Source of the DNA: Candidatus Krumholzibacteriia bacterium
Lineage (GTDB): Bacteria; Krumholzibacteriota; Krumholzibacteriia; JAJRXK01
NCBI GenBank assembly: GCA_041484665.1
Contig: JBGPIA010000001.1
Coordinates: 576,001-640,000 of the forward strand
Length of the DNA stretch: 64,000 bases
Direction: 5' to 3'
Every line of letters starts with the position of its first letter. Positions within the stretch are counted from its first letter, which is position 1. The notes beneath the pieces are model-generated. The model was not told where the DNA came from and did not search any database. It saw nothing but the letters and a program-made list of their open reading frames with translations. The translations under genes were made by a program, and so were the position numbers. Positions 42,744 to 54,506 of the stretch are shown one piece after another.

Positions 42744-44165
42744 ATGTCCGCGTGGCCGCGCATGCTTCCGTTCCCCGCTCCCCGCCGCTCATGCGCTGCG
42801 CTCGTGGCGGCGCTGTTTCTGGCGGCGGCAAGCGTTTCCTGCGCGCCCCGACGCTCCGTGGGCACCTCCGCACGCGTGGGCACGACTCAAGGCGCCGGCG
42901 CCACCTCGGGCATGGGCAGCGCGCCGGATGCCGGCGGGGCGACGACTTCAGGCACGGCCGCGAGCCCGGGCTCCGCCGCGAAGTCCGGCAGCGGATCGGC
43001 CGGGGACCGCACGGGACCGGCGGCGCTGGCCGTGGAGCTCGTGGAGACCTTCCCAGTGGAAACGAGCCTCGATCACCCCGACGTCCGCGAGGCGTACCAG
43101 GTCTGGCTGGAGATGATCCGCAGCGCGACGCGCACGCTCGACATCGCCGAGTTCTATGTGAACACGGAGCCGGGCAGCCGCCTGGAGCCAATCGTGCAGG
43201 CTGTCGAGGATGCCGCCGCGCGCGCCGTACGCGTGCGAGTGCTCGCGGACGCGAAGTTCTACAAGACGTACCCGCAGACCCTGGAACGCCTGGCATCCCG
43301 CGCGGGCATCACCGTCCGGCGGTTCGACGTCGGGGCGCTCACGGGTGGCGTGCTCCACGCCAAGTACTTCCTGGTGGATGGGCGCGAGGTCTACCTGGGC
43401 AGCCAGAATTTCGACTGGCGCTCGCTGGAGCATATCGAGGAGGTGGGGGTGCGCGTGCGGGTCCCCGAGGTGGCGCGCACGCTGCAGGAAGTGTTCGACA
43501 TGGACTGGGTGCTGGCCGGAGGGAGTCGGGACCGTCCCCACCGGCTGCAGCCTCGCGGCGCAAGCGGCGGGACGATGGTGCTGGAAGGGCAGGATACTCT
43601 CCGCGTGCGCGCGGTGGGCAGCCCGCACGGCTGGCTGCCCGATGAGGCGCTCTGGGACCTGCCCCAGCTGGTGGCGCTCATCGACAGCGCGAGAAGCTCC
43701 GTGCGCGCGCAGCTGTACTCGTACAAGACTGTGGGCCACGACCACGACTACTTCGATGCCCTCGAGGCGGCGCTGCGGCGAGCGGCTGCGCGTGGCGTCG
43801 CGGTGCAGCTGCTGATGGCGGACTGGTGCAAGCGCAAGGGCACGATCGAGGGATTGCAGAGTCTGCAGTCGGTCCCGGGAATCGACGTGCGGCTGGTGAC
43901 GATCCCGCAGCACAGCGGCGGCTTCATCCCATTCGCGCGAGTGACACACGCCAAGTACCTGACGGTCGATGCGCGGCGCTGCTGGGTCGGGACAGACAAC
44001 TGGGAGAAGGAGTACTTCTATCAGAGCCGCAACGTGGGCGTGATCGTCGAGGGCGCCTCGTTCGCCGGGCAGCTGGACCGCTTCTTCGACGACAACTGGC
44101 GCTCCTCCTACGCCTACGAGGTCGATCCCTGCAAGGTCTATGAGGTCCCGCGGATCGGGGAGTGA
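42744..44165 (+). CDS. Phospholipase D-superfamily lipoprotein (PLD3/PLD4/poxvirus K4-like)
   Basis: GGAGG RBS; lipobox-like 'SVSC'; two HKD motifs 'LHAKYFLVD..YLGSQNFDWRSL' and 'THAKYLTVD..VGTDNW'. Confidence 0.9.
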   Translation: MSAWPRMLPFPAPRRSCAALVAALFLAAASVSCAPRRSVGTSARVGTTQGAGATSGMGSAPDAGGATTSGTAASPGSAAKSGSGSAGDRTGPAALAVELVETFPVETSLDHPDVREAYQVWLEMIRSATRTLDIAEFYVNTEPGSRLEPIVQAVEDAAARAVRVRVLADAKFYKTYPQTLERLASRAGITVRRFDVGALTGGVLHAKYFLVDGREVYLGSQNFDWRSLEHIEEVGVRVRVPEVARTLQEVFDMDWVLAGGSRDRPHRLQPRGASGGTMVLEGQDTLRVRAVGSPHGWLPDEALWDLPQLVALIDSARSSVRAQLYSYKTVGHDHDYFDALEAALRRAAARGVAVQLLMADWCKRKGTIEGLQSLQSVPGIDVRLVTIPQHSGGFIPFARVTHAKYLTVDARRCWVGTDNWEKEYFYQSRNVGVIVEGASFAGQLDRFFDDNWRSSYAYEVDPCKVYEVPRIGE

Positions 44166-45957: not shown

Positions 45958-46255
45958 GCCGGCGGAGCGGGTGGCCGCCGCGGGGAGCGAGCGCGCCGCG
46001 CAGGCGCCGCAAAGGGCCGCCACCCAGGCGCCACGGCAAGCGGCCGCGCGAAGCCGCGGCGCAAGCGTGGCACATCGCCACGGCGCGACGCGACGCTGCT
46101 GCGCTGTGCTGCAACGCTCTGGTGCAGCGCGGCACGGGTCCCGGCCGGTAGTGCGCACGCGATCCATGGTTGACGAAGCGACTCTTTGGAGCTACGGCTT
46201 TCTGCAGCCCCGCTGCGGCGGGGCATCAACGAGACCCAAGCGGAGGAGTGTGTCG

Positions 46256-47002
46256 ATGGAGATCCTTCAGTCTCTGTTCCGGTGGATCCACGTGGTTGCT
46301 GGCACCCTGTGGATCGGCCACCTCTACTTCTTCAACTGGGTGAACGCCAACTTCGCCGCCACCATGGACGGCGAGACGAAGAAAAAGGTCGTACCCGAGC
46401 TGATGCCCCGTGCGCTCTACTTCTTCCGCTGGGGAGCCGCGTGGACGTGGATCACCGGCCTGCTGTTGCTGCTGCTCGTGTACTACCACGGCGGGATCAT
46501 GTTCAACCCGATCGGCGCATGGGGGCCGCGCGCGATCGTGGCGCTCGTGCTTGTTTTCCCAGGGGTGTACATCTACGAGATCCTGGTGAAGACCATCCTG
46601 AAGAACCCGAAGGTCACCTTCTGGGGTGGCTGGATCCTCGCGTCGTTGGTGGTGTACTTCTTCGCCGACATCGCCCACCTCAGCTACCGCTCCTACGCCA
46701 TCCACCTGGGCGCTATGTTCGGATCGTTCATGGCGTTCAACGTCTGGTACCGCATCTGGCCGGCGCAGCGCAAGATCATCGCGGCGGTCAAGGCGGGCCA
46801 GGCGCCCGACGCAGCGGTCGTGGCGCTGGCCGGAACGCGCTCGAAGCACAACACCTACATGAGCGTGCCGCTGGTCTTTGCCATGGTGAGCCAGCACGCC
46901 ACCTGGGCCGCCAAGCCGGGCTATGTCTCGGCGGTGATCCTGGTGGGCTGGGCCGTGACGTTCTGGATCTACGGCAAGGCGAAGACGGTGAAGGGCTTCT
47001 GA
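46256..47002 (+). CDS. PuuD-like (urate hydroxylase N-terminal domain) membrane protein without a cytochrome c domain
   Basis: GGAGGAG RBS; 'FRWIHVVAGTLWIG', 'FRWGAAWTWITG', 'MAFNVW..IWPAQRKI', 'RSKHNTYM'; no CxxCH. Confidence 0.85.
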   Translation: MEILQSLFRWIHVVAGTLWIGHLYFFNWVNANFAATMDGETKKKVVPELMPRALYFFRWGAAWTWITGLLLLLLVYYHGGIMFNPIGAWGPRAIVALVLVFPGVYIYEILVKTILKNPKVTFWGGWILASLVVYFFADIAHLSYRSYAIHLGAMFGSFMAFNVWYRIWPAQRKIIAAVKAGQAPDAAVVALAGTRSKHNTYMSVPLVFAMVSQHATWAAKPGYVSAVILVGWAVTFWIYGKAKTVKGF

Positions 47003-48368: not shown

Positions 48369-49634
48369 ATGCAGACCGCTCATCAGATCACACGCGACGA
48401 GCTCGTGGCGAAGCTGCGCGACCCCTCGCATCTCTTGCTGGACGTGCTCCCCCGTGAGTCCTTCGAGAGCAGCCACATCTTTGGCGCGGTGAGCCTGCCC
48501 CTGGCGGAGATCCCGTCGCGCGCACGTGCCGTCGCGCCCGATCTCGCGCGGCGGATCTCCGTCTACTGTGGCGGGCCGACCTGACCGCTGGGCGAGCGGG
48601 CCGTGGGCCTGCTGGGTGAGCTGGGATACCACGACGTGCGGCACTACGTGGGCGGCCTGGAGGATTGGACGAAGAGCAATCTTCCGCTGGAAGGGTCCCA
48701 TACCGTGGGGGCGCGCGCGGCCGGCGCCGGCGCGACACGACGAGCCGCGCCGGGAGTCCCCATGGCCAAGCTCCGGCGAGGGCTGCGCGGCGGCCGCTTC
48801 CTGGCCGTACTCACCGAGAGCTCGTTCGGCGGACTGTTCGGCCTGTGGATCCTCGTCGTCGCCGCCTTCGGGCTGCTGTACTGGCTGCTCGGGCTGTGGG
48901 GCGCCCCAGCGATGGCGCAGGCCGGTGCTCCGGTCCGATCGGATCTGCGCGGACTCGGCACCGCGATCTACTTCAGCTTCGTCACCGCCACCTCGGTCGG
49001 CTTCGGGGACGTGGTGCCGCTGGGACTGGGGCGTCTGGTCGCCGTCGTGGAGGCCGGTCTGGAGCTGCTGGTGTTCGGCTGCGTGGTCTCCAAGCTGGTG
49101 AGCAGCCGTCAAGAGCTGCTGACCGAGGAGATCCACCGCATTTCCTTCGAGGACCGCCTGGGTCGCGTGCGCACCAACCTCCACCTCGTCCTCTCGGAGC
49201 TGCAGGCCATCGCGCTGGCACGTGCGGCGGCCGCCAATGCGCCCGCCACCACGGGCGTCGCGCGCGCCGTGACCGCCGCCGCCACCAGCACCGCCCCCTC
49301 CGATCGCCTGTTGCCGCGCGTAGAAAGCCTGGCGATGGTCTTCCTCGGTGAGCTGCGCACCGTCCACGATCTGCTCTACCGCCCGCAGCAGCGTCCGGAC
49401 GATCAAGTTCTCGAGGGGTTGCTGGCAAGCGTCGCAGCGAACCTCCGCGAGCTGCGCGACCTCTCCGCATGGCTGCGCGAGTCCACCCAGGCTACGGCAA
49501 CCCTCAACGGGACCGCTGCGTCCATCGCGCGCCTCGCCGCGGAGATCTGCGGCGAGTGCACGCCGCGCCAGCACGTGCCCGAGGTGAAGTTGTGGATGGA
49601 CCGGATCCAGGAGATCGCCCAGCGGATCTCGTAA
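48369..49634 (+). CDS. Putative selenoprotein: rhodanese domain (CxxxxU, TGA at codon 72) fused to a 2-TM potassium-channel pore domain
   Basis: ORFs 48072-48584 and 48603-49634 share a frame and are separated only by TGA 48582-84. The rhodanese fold spans the stop ('LLDVLPRESFESSHIFGAVSLP..VYCGGPT*PLGERAVGLLGELGYHDVRHYVGGLEDW'). Channel: 'AIYFSFVTATSVGFGDVVP'. Confidence 0.8.
48585..48613 (+). promoter_or_regulatory. Putative bacterial SECIS element
   Basis: Stem AGCGGGCC (48595-602) / GGCCUGCU (48606-13), one G-U pair, loop GUG with G 18 nt after the UGA; folded by eye. Confidence 0.6.
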
Positions 49635-49691: not shown

Positions 49692-50858
49692 CTACGCCTG
49701 TCGCAAGAGCTGCGCGATCGGCTCGCGCGAGGCCGACCAGGCTGGTGCGAAGCCGCCGATCACACCGGTGAGCACGGCGAGCAGGATCCCGCCCACCAGC
49801 ACGCCGGGCGTGGTGCGCAGCGAGAAACTGATCTCGCTGAAGGTCAGGAAGTTGGTGGTGCCGGTGGTATAGGCGTTCAGCGGCAGCGAGAGCACCGCTC
49901 CGACCGCACCGGCCAAGAGCCCGATCAGGGCCGCCTCCGTCACGAAGGCCCCCAGGATGCTGCGGCGACGGAAGCCCAGCGCGCGTAGCGTCCCGATCTC
50001 CGTGGCCCGGGCCGAGACCGACGCGTACATCGTGTTGGCCGCGGCGAAACAGGCGCCAAATCCCATCATGATGCCCAGCAGGTTCCCCATGACTACGAAT
50101 TGCCTACCGGTGGCGCGCGTCTGGCTGGCGTAGTACTCCGGCTCCAACAGCGGCTGCAGATGCAGGCGCTGATCGCCCGCGATGCTCGCGGCCAGTGCCT
50201 GGGCGCCCTGCGCCGATGCCGCCCGCAGCAGGCTCGAAGAGCAGACGGTCTCTCGCCGGAAGGCGTTGCCGAAATCCTCCCGCGCCCCCCAGACTTCCGA
50301 GGCAAAGCTCCCGCCCCCGGCGTCGAACAGCCCGACCACCTTGAAACCCAGGCGGCCGAAGGTCACCTCACGCCCGAGCTGCAGTTCGGGGAAGCGCGAG
50401 GCGAGCGACTTACCCACGATCACTTCTCCGGCGCCAGGTCGGAAGTTGTGCCCCTCCACGATCCGCAGCCGCGGCCGCACGAGAAACGCCTCGGGACCGA
50501 CCCCGCGCAGCGCCACGTTGCTCTCGCTGCCGTTGGCCCGCTTGAGGATCTGCAGGATCACGAGCTCGCCCGAAGCCAGCACGTTGCCGTCCGCCGCGTG
50601 GGCGATGCCCGGCATCGCCGCCATCTCGCGGTGGCGCTCCAGGGGAAAGTAGCTCTCGGACTCGCTGCGTGCGCCGTCACGGAGCACGATCACGTTGCGC
50701 GGGTCCCCGCTGCTGCCAAACGCCAGCCTCAGCCCGGCCGCCAGCGACAACACGCCGATATAGACCAGCACGACCATCGCGATCGAGGCGATGGTCATGA
50801 GCGTGGTCCCGCGGCGCACGAACAGGCTGCGGAAGTTGTACTTCATGGGGATGTTCAT
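49692..50858 (-). CDS. ABC transporter permease (MacB/FtsX family)
   Basis: 'YNFRSLFVRRGTT', 'ANTMYASVSARATEIGTLRALGF'. Confidence 0.92.
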   Translation of the reverse strand: MNIPMKYNFRSLFVRRGTTLMTIASIAMVVLVYIGVLSLAAGLRLAFGSSGDPRNVIVLRDGARSESESYFPLERHREMAAMPGIAHAADGNVLASGELVILQILKRANGSESNVALRGVGPEAFLVRPRLRIVEGHNFRPGAGEVIVGKSLASRFPELQLGREVTFGRLGFKVVGLFDAGGGSFASEVWGAREDFGNAFRRETVCSSSLLRAASAQGAQALAASIAGDQRLHLQPLLEPEYYASQTRATGRQFVVMGNLLGIMMGFGACFAAANTMYASVSARATEIGTLRALGFRRRSILGAFVTEAALIGLLAGAVGAVLSLPLNAYTTGTTNFLTFSEISFSLRTTPGVLVGGILLAVLTGVIGGFAPAWSASREPIAQLLRQA

Positions 50859-52003
50859 GCCACCCTCCGCAGGCCGTCGACGATGCGCAGGCGCGCTGCC
50901 TGGAACGCGGGGAACCAACCGGCGGTGGCGCCGATCAGAAGCGAGAGGCCCACGCCCGACCACAGGGCTCCAGGGGTCAGCCGCAGCGTGCCGAACAGCG
51001 GGAACACATCCCGCATTGCCTTGGCGATGCCGGGCATGATGCTGGCGGCGATCGCCATGCCGATCAGGCCTCCCATCAGGCCGACCACCACGGCCTCGGC
51101 GAGCACCATCCACACGACCTGCCCGCGCCCGAAGCCCAGCGTTTTGAGCACTGCCACCTCCGTGGTCCGCTCGCGCGCGGCCATCGCCATGGTGTTCGCC
51201 GTGATGAAGAGGATCGAGATCACGATGGCCAAGCCGATCGCCCCGAACATCAGCTTGATGTTGCCCAGCATCTCCACGAACGAGAGCCGAAACGCCGCCT
51301 CGGTCTCGGCGCGGACCTGCGCCTGCGAGTTCTCGAACATCTTCTCGGCGGCGGCCACCACGGTGGGGAGGTTCAGCGCCGAGTCCAGCAGCAGCCAGAA
51401 CGCCCCCACCTCGCCGGGGTTGCCCAGCGCTTCCTCGAGATACTTCCGGTGGAAGAGGATCTTCTGCTCCTGCGAAGGCGCGCCGGGGTCGGAGAAGATC
51501 CCGCGCAGCGTGAGGTTGAGATTCACGGGGTAGATGTCCCCCTTGATGAAGATCTGGTCGCCGATCTTCCAGCGATACTTGTCGGCCAGGGCCTGGCCAG
51601 CCAGGAAGCCTCCGCGATCCGCCTGCCACGCCTCCCTCTGCGGGTCGGCGATCTGATACTCCGGAAAGACGCCCAGCACCGTTTCGGGGTCGCTGGCAAA
51701 GCGGGCGAAGAAGTTCTCGGGCCGGTCGTTCTTGTAGACCCCCTGGAACCAGGTCAAAGGAGTGATGGCCTGCACGTGGGGCAGCGTCTGCAAGCGCTGC
51801 AGGTAGGACTCGGGCAGCGAGAATGTGAGCGAGATCGCGTTGCGTACCACCACGCGGTTCTCCTGGGAACCCTCGGCGCGCTCCATGGCCGCCAGCATCG
51901 AGAGCAGCATCGACAGCAGCAACAGCGCGAGGCTCACGCTGCCCATGGTCAGGAAGGTGCGCCGCTTGTTGCGCAGCAGGTTGCGCCAGGCCAGTTTGCC
52001 CAT
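50855..52003 (-). CDS. ABC transporter permease (MacB/FtsX family)
   Basis: '[14 protein letters not shown]', '[23 protein letters not shown]'; ATGA coupling to the next permease. Confidence 0.92.
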
Positions 52004-52932: not shown

Positions 52933-54165
52933 TCACGTCCGCACGCGACGGCCATCGCGCAGGGACTCCAGGTTGACCTGCACGATCGTCTCGCCGCCGC
53001 GCAGCCCCGACAAGACCTCCACCTGATCCCCTGCGGCAGCGCCGACGGTGACCGCCAGCTTGCGCAGCCGGCCCCCCTGCACCACGAACACGAAGGCGTC
53101 CTGCCCCTCCATGCGCACGGCGCTGCGCGTAACTACGATTTTTGCCTGCGCCGCAAGCTGCTCGGTGCGCGTGCCCTCCTCCAGGAAGGTCACCGTCGAG
53201 CTCATGTCGGGCACCAGGCGCGCGTCACGGTCGTCGATGGTGACCTTGACCTGCACGACAGCGCGCTGGCGGTCGGCCGTCGGCACGATCTGGCGCAGCC
53301 GGCCATGATAGCTGACGCCGGGAACGGCATCGACGCCGATCGTCGCCGGTTGGCCCAGCTTCAGCCGCGCGATGTAGCTCTCGTTGATGTCAGCCTCGAC
53401 CTCCAGGCTTCCGAGATCGGCGATGCGCACGATCGATCCGCTGGACTGCTGCGACGTGAAGCCCCCGGGTGCGACCATCTCCCCCACCTCGATGTTCTTG
53501 TCGACGATCACGCCGGAGATGGGGGCCGTTACGACCGTATAGGTCAGGCGGGCCCTTGCTGCCGCCAGCGCAGCCTCAGCGGTACCGAGCTGGGCGCGGG
53601 TGACGTCGAGCCGGGTGCTCGCCGCGTCGTAGTTCGCCTGTGCTCCCACGCCGCTGTCCAGCAGCCCCTGCTGGCGGCCGGCTTCCCGCTGGGCGTCGGC
53701 GACCTGGGCCTGCGCCTCGGCCACCCGCGCCTCCGCCTCCCGCACGGCGGCCTTGAGGTCGTCGCTGTCGAGGACGGCGATCACGTCGCCCGCCTTGACC
53801 GCATCGCCCTCGTCGACCCGTAGCTCCACCACGCGGCCGATGATCTTGGCGCCCACGGCGGCGCGGGTGCGGGCGTAGGTGTAGCCGGTGGCGGTCAAGA
53901 CCGTGGAGGCCTGGGTCGGCGTGATCACCTGGGCGGAGGTGGTCTCCACGCGTGGCAAAAGCCACGGCAAAGGCAACAGCCACGCCCCCGCCAGCAGCAC
54001 GGCTAGCATAACCAGGGCGATCATCCACGGGCGCACGGCCCGCCGCGGGCGGCGCACCACACCTGGGGTCTGCGCCGTGTGGCGGTTCATCCGCAGCGCC
54101 GAGAGATCGGGCCGCGTCGTCTGGCCGGACGCGGGCTCTGGCTGGGCAGTCGGCGGGCCGTCCAA
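52933..54165 (-). CDS. Periplasmic adaptor (MacA/HlyD-type membrane fusion protein)
   Basis: TM anchor; 'VDEGDAVKAGDVIA', 'APISGVI', 'GEMVAPGG', 'VPDMS'; start probably TTG 54165 after GGAG (ATG 54090 is the alternative). Confidence 0.9.
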   Translation of the reverse strand: MDGPPTAQPEPASGQTTRPDLSALRMNRHTAQTPGVVRRPRRAVRPWMIALVMLAVLLAGAWLLPLPWLLPRVETTSAQVITPTQASTVLTATGYTYARTRAAVGAKIIGRVVELRVDEGDAVKAGDVIAVLDSDDLKAAVREAEARVAEAQAQVADAQREAGRQQGLLDSGVGAQANYDAASTRLDVTRAQLGTAEAALAAARARLTYTVVTAPISGVIVDKNIEVGEMVAPGGFTSQQSSGSIVRIADLGSLEVEADINESYIARLKLGQPATIGVDAVPGVSYHGRLRQIVPTADRQRAVVQVKVTIDDRDARLVPDMSSTVTFLEEGTRTEQLAAQAKIVVTRSAVRMEGQDAFVFVVQGGRLRKLAVTVGAAAGDQVEVLSGLRGGETIVQVNLESLRDGRRVRT

Positions 54166-54506
54166 CGCTTGGCTCCGGGGCAGGGGGCAACTCGGCCGTG
54201 CGCGCGAGCGGGCGCAGGGCCACGGCTGCGATCGGGGACCCACAGGATAGCGCGGCGGGCGCGGGGCACCAACCCGGAATGCCCCTGGACCTGCTGGAGC
54301 AAGATGCTACCCTGATGTGCTGGTCCCGGGCGTACTTAGTTTGAGGCCGTTGTGCCGGAACGGCCCCGCACTGCGTGTGGGCGCTGCGCCCAAACCGTCC
54401 CGCACCGGCGCCTCGGGCTCCAAGGAAGCCCCTCATCCCATCCATGAGCGCAACCGTCGAACCGCTGCGTCCGCTCCCGACGACATCCCGATCTGCTGGA
54501 GGGCCC

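Follow-up and report, generated by a model that had tools for sequence, protein, structure and literature searches.

A probable selenoprotein joining a rhodanese domain to a potassium channel pore across an in-frame TGA in a Krumholzibacteriia bacterium

Whether an in-frame TGA separates two genes or encodes selenocysteine (Sec) within a single one is the question raised by a locus in the window studied here, i.e., the whole stretch of 64,000 nucleotides from positions 576,001 to 640,000 of contig JBGPIA010000001.1 (Candidatus Krumholzibacteriia bacterium, assembly GCA_041484665.1). The frame runs from ATG 48369 to TAA 49632-49634, and its sole internal stop is the TGA at 48582-48584, codon 72. 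A preliminary description made from the letters had read this TGA as Sec, in a rhodanese fused to a potassium (K+) channel pore, and this reading is now supported by the residues found at column 72 of the homologues, by the contrast between Sec and non-Sec forms in a hairpin downstream, by the Sec machinery of the genome and by other assemblies. Comparison of sequences shows one gene for a predicted protein with Sec at residue 72, in which a rhodanese domain, a K+ pore and a CxxC-bearing bundle are joined and in which Sec and Cys interchange. On the whole, we consider it probable that the product is one 421-residue inner-membrane selenoprotein K+ channel with a rhodanese sensor, whose gating would follow the state of Cys67 and Sec72. 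The coordinates of the features are collected in Table 1.

The continuity of the frame can be followed in the nucleotide sequence. Codon 72 stands in the context TAC TGT GGC GGG CCG ACC TGA, read as VYCGGPT and a stop, and with the TGA read through the loop is VYCGGPTUPLG. The peptide strings quoted in the preliminary description, LGELGYHDVRHYVGGLEDW, YFSFVT, TSVGFGD and ICGEC, were all found in this frame. Guanine-plus-cytosine (GC) contents at the three codon positions are 0.70/0.49/0.86 on the 5' side of the TGA and 0.74/0.51/0.87 on its 3' side. Upstream of ATG 48369 the corresponding values are 0.69/0.74/0.84, unlike those of the gene, and this ATG is therefore supported as the start. Contigs of four other sediment-metagenome runs (X2-X5) span 48582-48584 with 0 differences. 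Because these contigs are identical there, the TGA is not a base-calling or assembly error, the possibility that the preliminary description had named as a test of its claim. It had also predicted that gene callers would split the gene, and indeed the public protein collection holds only a 343-residue product (P0002).

It was further observed that short contigs from other organisms in runs X2-X5 show matches of 90% or more to the window at 48563-48614 and 48955-49006 only. These are the two most conserved nucleotide stretches of the gene, the former covering YCGGPT, the TGA and the hairpin and the latter the selectivity filter.

The residues at column 72 of the homologues bear on how the codon is read. 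A protein search over 5.8 billion proteins gave 1046 matches, the best 120 of which were examined. Full-length fusions of a rhodanese domain with Ion_trans_2 account for 45 of these 120, so the fusion proposed earlier does occur in other proteins. The remaining 75 are shorter calls whose first residue falls at query residues 74-141 (74-97 in 73 of the 75), i.e., they begin just past column 72, within the latter half of the rhodanese domain. At column 72, 34 of the 44 full-length proteins that were aligned carry Cys and the other 10 carry Ser, and all 44 share Cys67. A locus scan over one genome per prokaryotic species recovered 80 loci with 40-53% protein identity, and in these the codon at column 72 is TGA in 72 (71 found by pattern, and L024), TGT or TGC in seven and TCG (Ser) in one. 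Neither Trp nor Arg was seen at this column in the 80 loci and the 44 full-length proteins. Cys or a conserved TGA at this position is what the preliminary description had expected of a Sec codon. When 1.84 billion cluster representatives were searched with a profile, 329 proteins were returned at E <= 1e-30; among the best 55 of these 329 representatives of 50%-identity clusters, 38 have their own first or second residue aligned at profile positions 77-99, 11 cover the full length and six are other fragments or multi-rhodanese proteins.

A tree built with FastTree from 125 rows (73 Sec, 41 Cys and 11 Ser), for which column 72 was masked, shows the Sec and Cys forms mixed among each other. It requires 19 changes of state, of which well-supported branches force at least 12, and the Ser forms fall into two clades. 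Because the database rows were picked for full length, Cys and Ser are over-represented in this tree. The locus L022 from an unpublished genome (G012) is one row in the counts, the alignment and the tree, and no claim hangs on it alone. Some members of the family are longer, namely P0008 (634 residues) and P0143 (565 residues); the former carries an S-adenosylmethionine-dependent methyltransferase domain (PF13847, PF13649, PF08241) N-terminal to the rhodanese-channel unit.

Downstream of the TGA, a stem-loop resembling a bacterial Sec insertion sequence (SECIS) element can be folded. In the gap-free alignment of the 72 TGA forms, its stem columns are paired in 85.3% of cells, versus 33-53% when the partner strand is slid, and RNAalifold independently recovers the same stem at +14..+32. 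Third-codon-position entropy falls to 0.18-0.35 bits in the four stem codons, compared with 1.16-1.33 in the two loop codons and 1.3-1.9 in the flanking codons. The six core pairs are complete in 56 of 73 Sec forms, with five pairs in 11 more, versus one of the eight Cys/Ser loci (L060). The minimum free energy of +12..+35 has a median of -12.0 kcal/mol in the Sec forms and ranges from -2.4 to -11.4 kcal/mol in the Cys/Ser loci. In 69 of 73 Sec forms, positions +22/+23 are G-U; in the fdhF element of E. coli, the essential loop G and U are at +23/+24. A search of 48480-48720 against Rfam gave no SECIS family, and its only matches were sub-threshold chance matches to microRNA families.

The exceptional locus L060, a Cys form (TGT), keeps the six stem pairs at -11.4 kcal/mol with a loop of CGCGA instead of NGUNN, and looks like a recent conversion from Sec to Cys with a relic SECIS element.

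The machinery for Sec insertion, for which the preliminary description had suggested looking, was found complete in the genome (5.45 Mb, 93.65% complete). A tRNA-Sec was detected at 73 bits (called SeC with anticodon tca by ARAGORN), together with selA (455 bits), selB (353 bits) and selD (333 bits), all above their family cut-offs. The selD gene (contig C10, locus L017, position 1531) itself has an in-frame TGA (...YASAAG-U-AAKLSP..., AAGUAAKL), presumably at the position that Sec or Cys occupies in SelD proteins containing one of the two, and downstream of this TGA there is a 10-bp hairpin with its apex at +21..+23. Four of six nearby Pfam-supported genes end in TGA as an ordinary stop, and the genetic code is therefore not reassigned. 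In related genomes, selA was sought in 50 of the 80 (42 TGA-type, seven Cys-type and one Ser-type). It is present in all 42 TGA-type genomes tested, above cut-off in 41 and partial at a contig end in one. The seven Cys-type genomes include five with an intact selA, one whose selA is split into two parts lying at contig ends, and a last one (G007) with fragments only; in the sole Ser-type genome tested (G004, locus L041), no selA match was obtained. Loss of the Sec machinery seems to accompany replacement of Sec in the rhodanese-channel protein. Based on column 72, the hairpin and this machinery, UGA72 is very probably decoded as Sec.

The selA fragments in G007 (L051, Cys form) lie on one contig and score 154, 135, 95 and 35 bits; this may be a decaying gene.

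The position of Sec72 within the rhodanese domain bears on its possible role. In the AlphaFold 2 (AF2) model, made with a 45-row alignment (mean predicted local distance difference test, pLDDT, 88.8; predicted template modelling score, pTM, 0.58), the rhodanese part (residues 1-110) matches 3nhv with Z 17.2 and a root-mean-square deviation (rmsd) of 2.5 over 115 aligned residues, and GlpE (1gn0) with Z 15.5. Cys67 is aligned with the loop cysteine of the solved rhodaneses 6mxv and 1yt8, which have CX4R loops. U72 is aligned with the residue that closes the CX4R loop of six residues (Arg in 6mxv), and two inserted residues come directly after it; the catalytic loop therefore begins with Cys67 and ends with Sec72. 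In rhodanese structures, this loop wraps around the catalytic sulfur.

The remainder of the protein was predicted to be a channel with a cytoplasmic bundle, in agreement with the order of rhodanese, transmembrane helix 1 (TM1), pore helix, filter, TM2 and helical CxxC tail set out in the preliminary description. With the TGA read through, Pfam places Ion_trans_2 (PF07885) at residues 174-245 (43.3 bits vs a cut-off of 22.5, E 3.4e-11), and the model places the rhodanese fold at 1-110, the linker at 112-136 and a short helix at 141-150, followed by TM1, the pore helix, the filter and TM2. The modelled pore matches Kv2.1 (Z 10.8, rmsd 2.7, 90 aligned), GORK (Z 10.8) and a bacterial cyclic nucleotide-gated (CNG) channel (Z about 10.8), and Y201, G211, G213 and D214 are invariant in the 45-sequence alignment. 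The channel, like its relatives, is presumably tetrameric. TM2 continues as a single helix from 220 to about 290 and is followed by further helices. Modelled alone, the C-terminal 176 residues form six helices with pLDDT 91.0 and pTM 0.85. For this fold, Foldseek gave no match in the PDB at E <= 0.001 and the ESM Atlas gave no usable match; the fold resembles generic helical bundles only, its best Z being 11.7, to a de novo designed bundle (VIA-align, wide search), which is in the usual range for helical bundles. C394 and C397 are conserved in 99-100% of sequences in each of the three classes (Sec, Cys and Ser; 125 rows), and two more positions at which Cys is frequent in homologues are R285 and W368 in the window protein. 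When a complex of the rhodanese part (1-110) and the C-terminal part (247-403) of P0005 was predicted from an alignment of natural Cys-form homologues, it scored 0.22 against a mark of 0.32, which counts neither for nor against a contact.

From these features a mechanism can be proposed. As the comparisons indicate, UGA72 is very probably decoded by SelA, SelB, SelD and tRNA-Sec, directed by the hairpin 14-32 nucleotides downstream. Cys67, a likely primary reactive site because it is invariant even in the Ser forms, would take up sulfane sulfur or be oxidised, and Sec72 (or Cys72) at the far end of the loop could then resolve its state by a selenenylsulfide or a sulfur-bridged link. The change in the loop would pass through the linker and the C-terminal bundle continuous with TM2 to the channel gate, and the K+ flux might then track the thiol, persulfide or oxidant status of the cell. 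Gating by redox state or by sulfane sulfur seems to us to have a chance approaching, if somewhat short of, one in two.

Several results weigh against this reading. The Ser forms (10 of the 44 full-length proteins) retain Cys67 and the CxxC but have no second chalcogen in the loop; therefore, the Cys-Sec pair is not essential to the family. The covariation in the hairpin is weak, as the observed pairing was reached by 352 of 500 column shuffles. This control was not exceeded because the stem varies very little in sequence and shares nucleotides with the codons of the conserved peptide QAVGLL, and because of this overlap the support for the hairpin is that of synonymous-site constraint together with the contrast with only eight Cys/Ser loci. 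The genomic context gives no hint at the signal either: the largest cluster of neighbouring genes is found in only 12 of the 80 loci.

Other explanations of the locus have to be considered. The bare presence of a stop could possibly be caused by a sequencing or assembly error or by a recent inactivating mutation leaving a pseudogene, but four other runs are identical at this site and TGA stands at the same column in 72 other genomes, and this explanation is refuted for practical purposes. The UGA could also be a true stop, which would give a 71-residue rhodanese fragment and a separate channel starting at GTG 48603. Public gene calls are so shaped (P0002 and 75 of the 120 best matches), and since Sec is seldom inserted with full efficiency, a certain amount of terminated product is likely. 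However, the frame, the codon bias and the conservation of residues continue across the TGA, Cys is aligned with it in homologues, and a downstream hairpin and the Sec machinery are present. Moreover, the called start cuts the rhodanese fold midway, which would leave each product with half a domain. We regard two separate genes as very unlikely. Just as slight, in our estimation, is the chance that UGA is recoded to Cys or another residue by a route other than Sec, e.g., by a Cys-charged tRNA whose anticodon is UCA. Recoding of this kind is reported from some bacteria and would suit the functional interchangeability of Cys at column 72, but it is not in concordance with a complete Sec pathway that includes a Sec-containing selD, nor with selA in 42 of 42 TGA-type genomes tested; the UCA-anticodon tRNA that was found is of the SeC type, as obtained from a search aimed at tRNA-Sec and not from a genome-wide tRNA scan.

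The main rival to gating accepts the selenoprotein and assigns it another function: the rhodanese would be a working enzyme, i.e., a sulfur or selenium transferase or a reductase tethered at the membrane, and the pore would serve linked transport, anchoring or oligomerisation as a scaffold. Cys67 at the catalytic position is invariant, Sec is typical of catalytic redox sites, the YCGGPTU loop also occurs in rhodanese selenoproteins that are not channels, at least in the covered part of the catalogues, and the rhodanese selenoprotein TsoB, as described there, is fused to a DsbD-like membrane domain. On the other hand, the filter TSVGFGD and the pore residues are conserved as strictly as the rhodanese loop, and ion conduction is therefore under selection. 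No conserved partner gene that could belong to a pathway was found in the 80 loci, and two-helix K+ channels usually carry regulatory cytoplasmic domains. A tethered enzyme is thus rather improbable, although far less so than the explanations weighed above.

The loop of the window protein has relatives among catalogued selenoproteins. The sources consulted for this comparison, namely a 2026 review of the prokaryotic selenoproteome (PMC13188914) and the deep-Sep and BSepDB supplements, were covered in part, and the statements made here refer to the parts covered. The review lists five forms of rhodanese selenoproteins, with the motifs UxxS, UxxG, CxU (NF041203), UxxG and, in TsoB, UxxxxU (NF045694). 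Its form 1, a rhodanese-like selenoprotein with the motif UxxS and the representative WP_010941598.1, is attributed to Zhang and Gladyshev (2005). The deep-Sep supplement includes entries named 'Rhodanese-like domain-containing protein' with the loops FYCGGPTUGMS, FYCGGPTURLS and FYCGGVTUVLS, and entries named 'COG0607 form 1', in which Sec takes the catalytic position (YURSG), and 'form 2' (YCAU). As YCGGPTU is present in these entries, this type of Sec-bearing loop is already catalogued, in proteins that are not channels. The preliminary description was therefore right that a YCxxxxC/U subgroup of rhodaneses and rhodanese selenoproteins are known, the catalogued form 1 reading FYCGGPTU. By comparison of motifs, the catalytic loop of form 1 agrees with that of the window protein, both having Cys at position 0 and Sec at +5. 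However, form 1 is a multi-rhodanese protein lacking a pore signature, whereas the window protein has a single cytoplasmic rhodanese with a channel and a CxxC bundle. The N-termini of the catalogued proteins resemble signal peptides by eye. Judged by motif, the catalogued form 1 appears to be a closer known relative of the window rhodanese loop than TsoB or KcsA.

TsoB (form 5, with two Sec residues) resembles the window protein in being a Sec-containing rhodanese with five-residue spacing, fused to an integral membrane domain; from the motif, both of its Sec residues would lie in the rhodanese loop. It differs in that the window protein scores 30.6 bits vs a cut-off of 805, that the first loop position is Cys in the window and not Sec, and that the membrane part is a K+ pore in the window and DsbD-like in TsoB. 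NF041203 (LYCAU, form 3, CxU) was not reached either (24.7 bits vs a cut-off of 115), and the Sec of the window protein is at +5, not at +2; indeed, no model of NCBIfam release 20.0 was reached.

Among membrane proteins, the likeness to KcsA-type channels is one of general architecture, the pore matches listed being Kv2.1, GORK and the bacterial CNG channel. Such two-helix channels share with the window protein TM1, the pore helix, a T-x-V-G-Y/F-G-D filter and a TM2 extended as a long cytoplasmic helix, but the window protein adds the N-terminal Sec rhodanese and has a six-helix CxxC bundle in place of a simple helix. YgaP of E. coli is similar in having a cytoplasmic rhodanese on a two-helix membrane protein, and this rhodanese matches the model (5hbl, Z 13.6, rmsd 2.3, 103 aligned). 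YgaP is not known to have a pore signature or Sec, and the rhodanese is its only functional domain.

The fusion of a rhodanese with a channel is in none of the selenoprotein catalogues searched, within the parts covered. The words 'channel', 'potassium', 'PF07885' and 'CxxxxU' do not occur in the covered part of the review (PMC13188914), there are 0 occurrences of SVGYGD, SVGFGD and YFSFVT in that of the deep-Sep supplement, and terms for a rhodanese-channel selenoprotein are absent from the examined part of the BSepDB supplement. Similarly, 'rhodanese', 'channel' and 'potassium' are absent from the main texts of BSepDB, deep-Sep and SelCysML, and full-text literature searches joining selenoprotein or selenocysteine, rhodanese, and potassium or ion channel returned nothing relevant.

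To our knowledge, selenoproteins are almost all soluble redox enzymes. The most far-reaching form of the proposal is that this is the first known Sec-containing ion channel, in a large mis-annotated K+ channel family, in which a Cys-x4-Sec loop acts as the sensor, alternating between a selenol/thiol form and a selenenylsulfide or sulfur-bridged one, and directly ties membrane potential and K+ flux to the levels of sulfane sulfur or oxidants in soil and sediment bacteria. We hold this to be possible, with the balance tilted against it. If true, an ion channel with a Sec sensor would bring membrane excitability and ion homeostasis within the scope of selenium biology, and it would offer a natural and genetically simple model of chalcogen-based gating, as Sec, Cys and Ser variants occur naturally. 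The rhodanese-channel family is common in soil and sediment bacteria and is cut in two by gene finders. Public gene calls in the family are shortened by the hundreds (75 of the 120 best matches and 38 of the 55 best cluster representatives), and a curated family model would mend the annotation in Acidobacteriota, Binatota, Methylomirabilota, Planctomycetota, Gemmatimonadota and 'delta-proteobacterial' metagenome-assembled genomes.

Table 1. Features of the rhodanese-channel locus and its neighbours in the 64,000-nucleotide window
Feature	Position	Strand	Basis
Whole gene, 421 codons and TAA, with UGA72 read as selenocysteine	48369..49634	+	One frame, one internal TGA; homologues span both sides
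Rhodanese domain (PF00581), residues 8-102	48390..48674	+	Pfam, 48.5 bits vs cut-off 22.2, E 1.3e-12
TGT, Cys67, catalytic-cysteine position	48567..48569	+	Invariant in 44/44 full-length homologues and all 125 rows
TGA, probable Sec72, last of the six residues of the catalytic loop C-G-G-P-T-U	48582..48584	+	TGA in 72/80 loci; aligned with the CX4R Arg of 6mxv
SECIS-like hairpin, 8-bp stem +14..+21/+25..+32 (from the U of UGA), loop G-U-G +22..+24	48595..48613	+	Fold and comparison
GTG, start of the called 343-residue 'channel-only' product	48603..48605	+	P0002, 100% identical over 81% of query; open reading frame 48603-49634
Linker, Ala/Gly/Arg-rich, residues 112-136, disordered	48702..48776	+	pLDDT below 50; poorly aligned and length-variable in homologues
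Two-helix K+ pore: TM1 153-176, pore helix 193-208, filter T208-S-V-G-F-G-D214, TM2 from 220	48825..49103	+	Pfam, AF2
C-terminal cytoplasmic helical bundle, residues 246-421, continuous with TM2	49104..49631	+	AF2; no Pfam family
CxxC, C394-G-E-C397	49548..49559	+	Both Cys invariant in 45 and in 121 sequences
PLD-like protein	42744-44165		Neighbour
Urate_ox_N membrane protein	45971-47002		Neighbour
MacB/FtsX-type permease	49692-51629		Neighbour
HlyD-type adaptor	52933-54243		Neighbour

In the window, the gene stands alone, with a divergent gene with a CarboxypepD_reg domain upstream and a convergent MacB-like permease downstream, and none of the four neighbours listed in Table 1 has a link to sulfur or selenium metabolism. 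A scan for promoters and terminators gave nothing relevant. When a second genomic copy was sought by pattern, only the locus at 48369-49634 and one chance match were obtained; the latter lies on the strand opposite a 453-residue open reading frame that, by eye, looks HflX-like. An antisense open reading frame at 48051-49574 matches no Pfam family and was taken as an artefact of high GC content.

Two further stretches within the gene were noted. An imperfect inverted repeat at 48501-48565 (GGAGATCC...GGATCTCC), within the rhodanese coding region, gave sub-threshold Rfam matches to microRNA families on both strands and is likely a product of chance in GC-rich coding DNA. The GC-rich stretch at 49264-49302, which encodes an Ala- and Thr-rich segment, is covered at 4-9x the depth of the surrounding contig with numerous loose ends, and three runs show a 1-base insertion variant at 49279. 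This is probably low-complexity sequence common to unrelated genomes, and the loop in which it falls is the one loop of the C-terminal domain that is poorly conserved.

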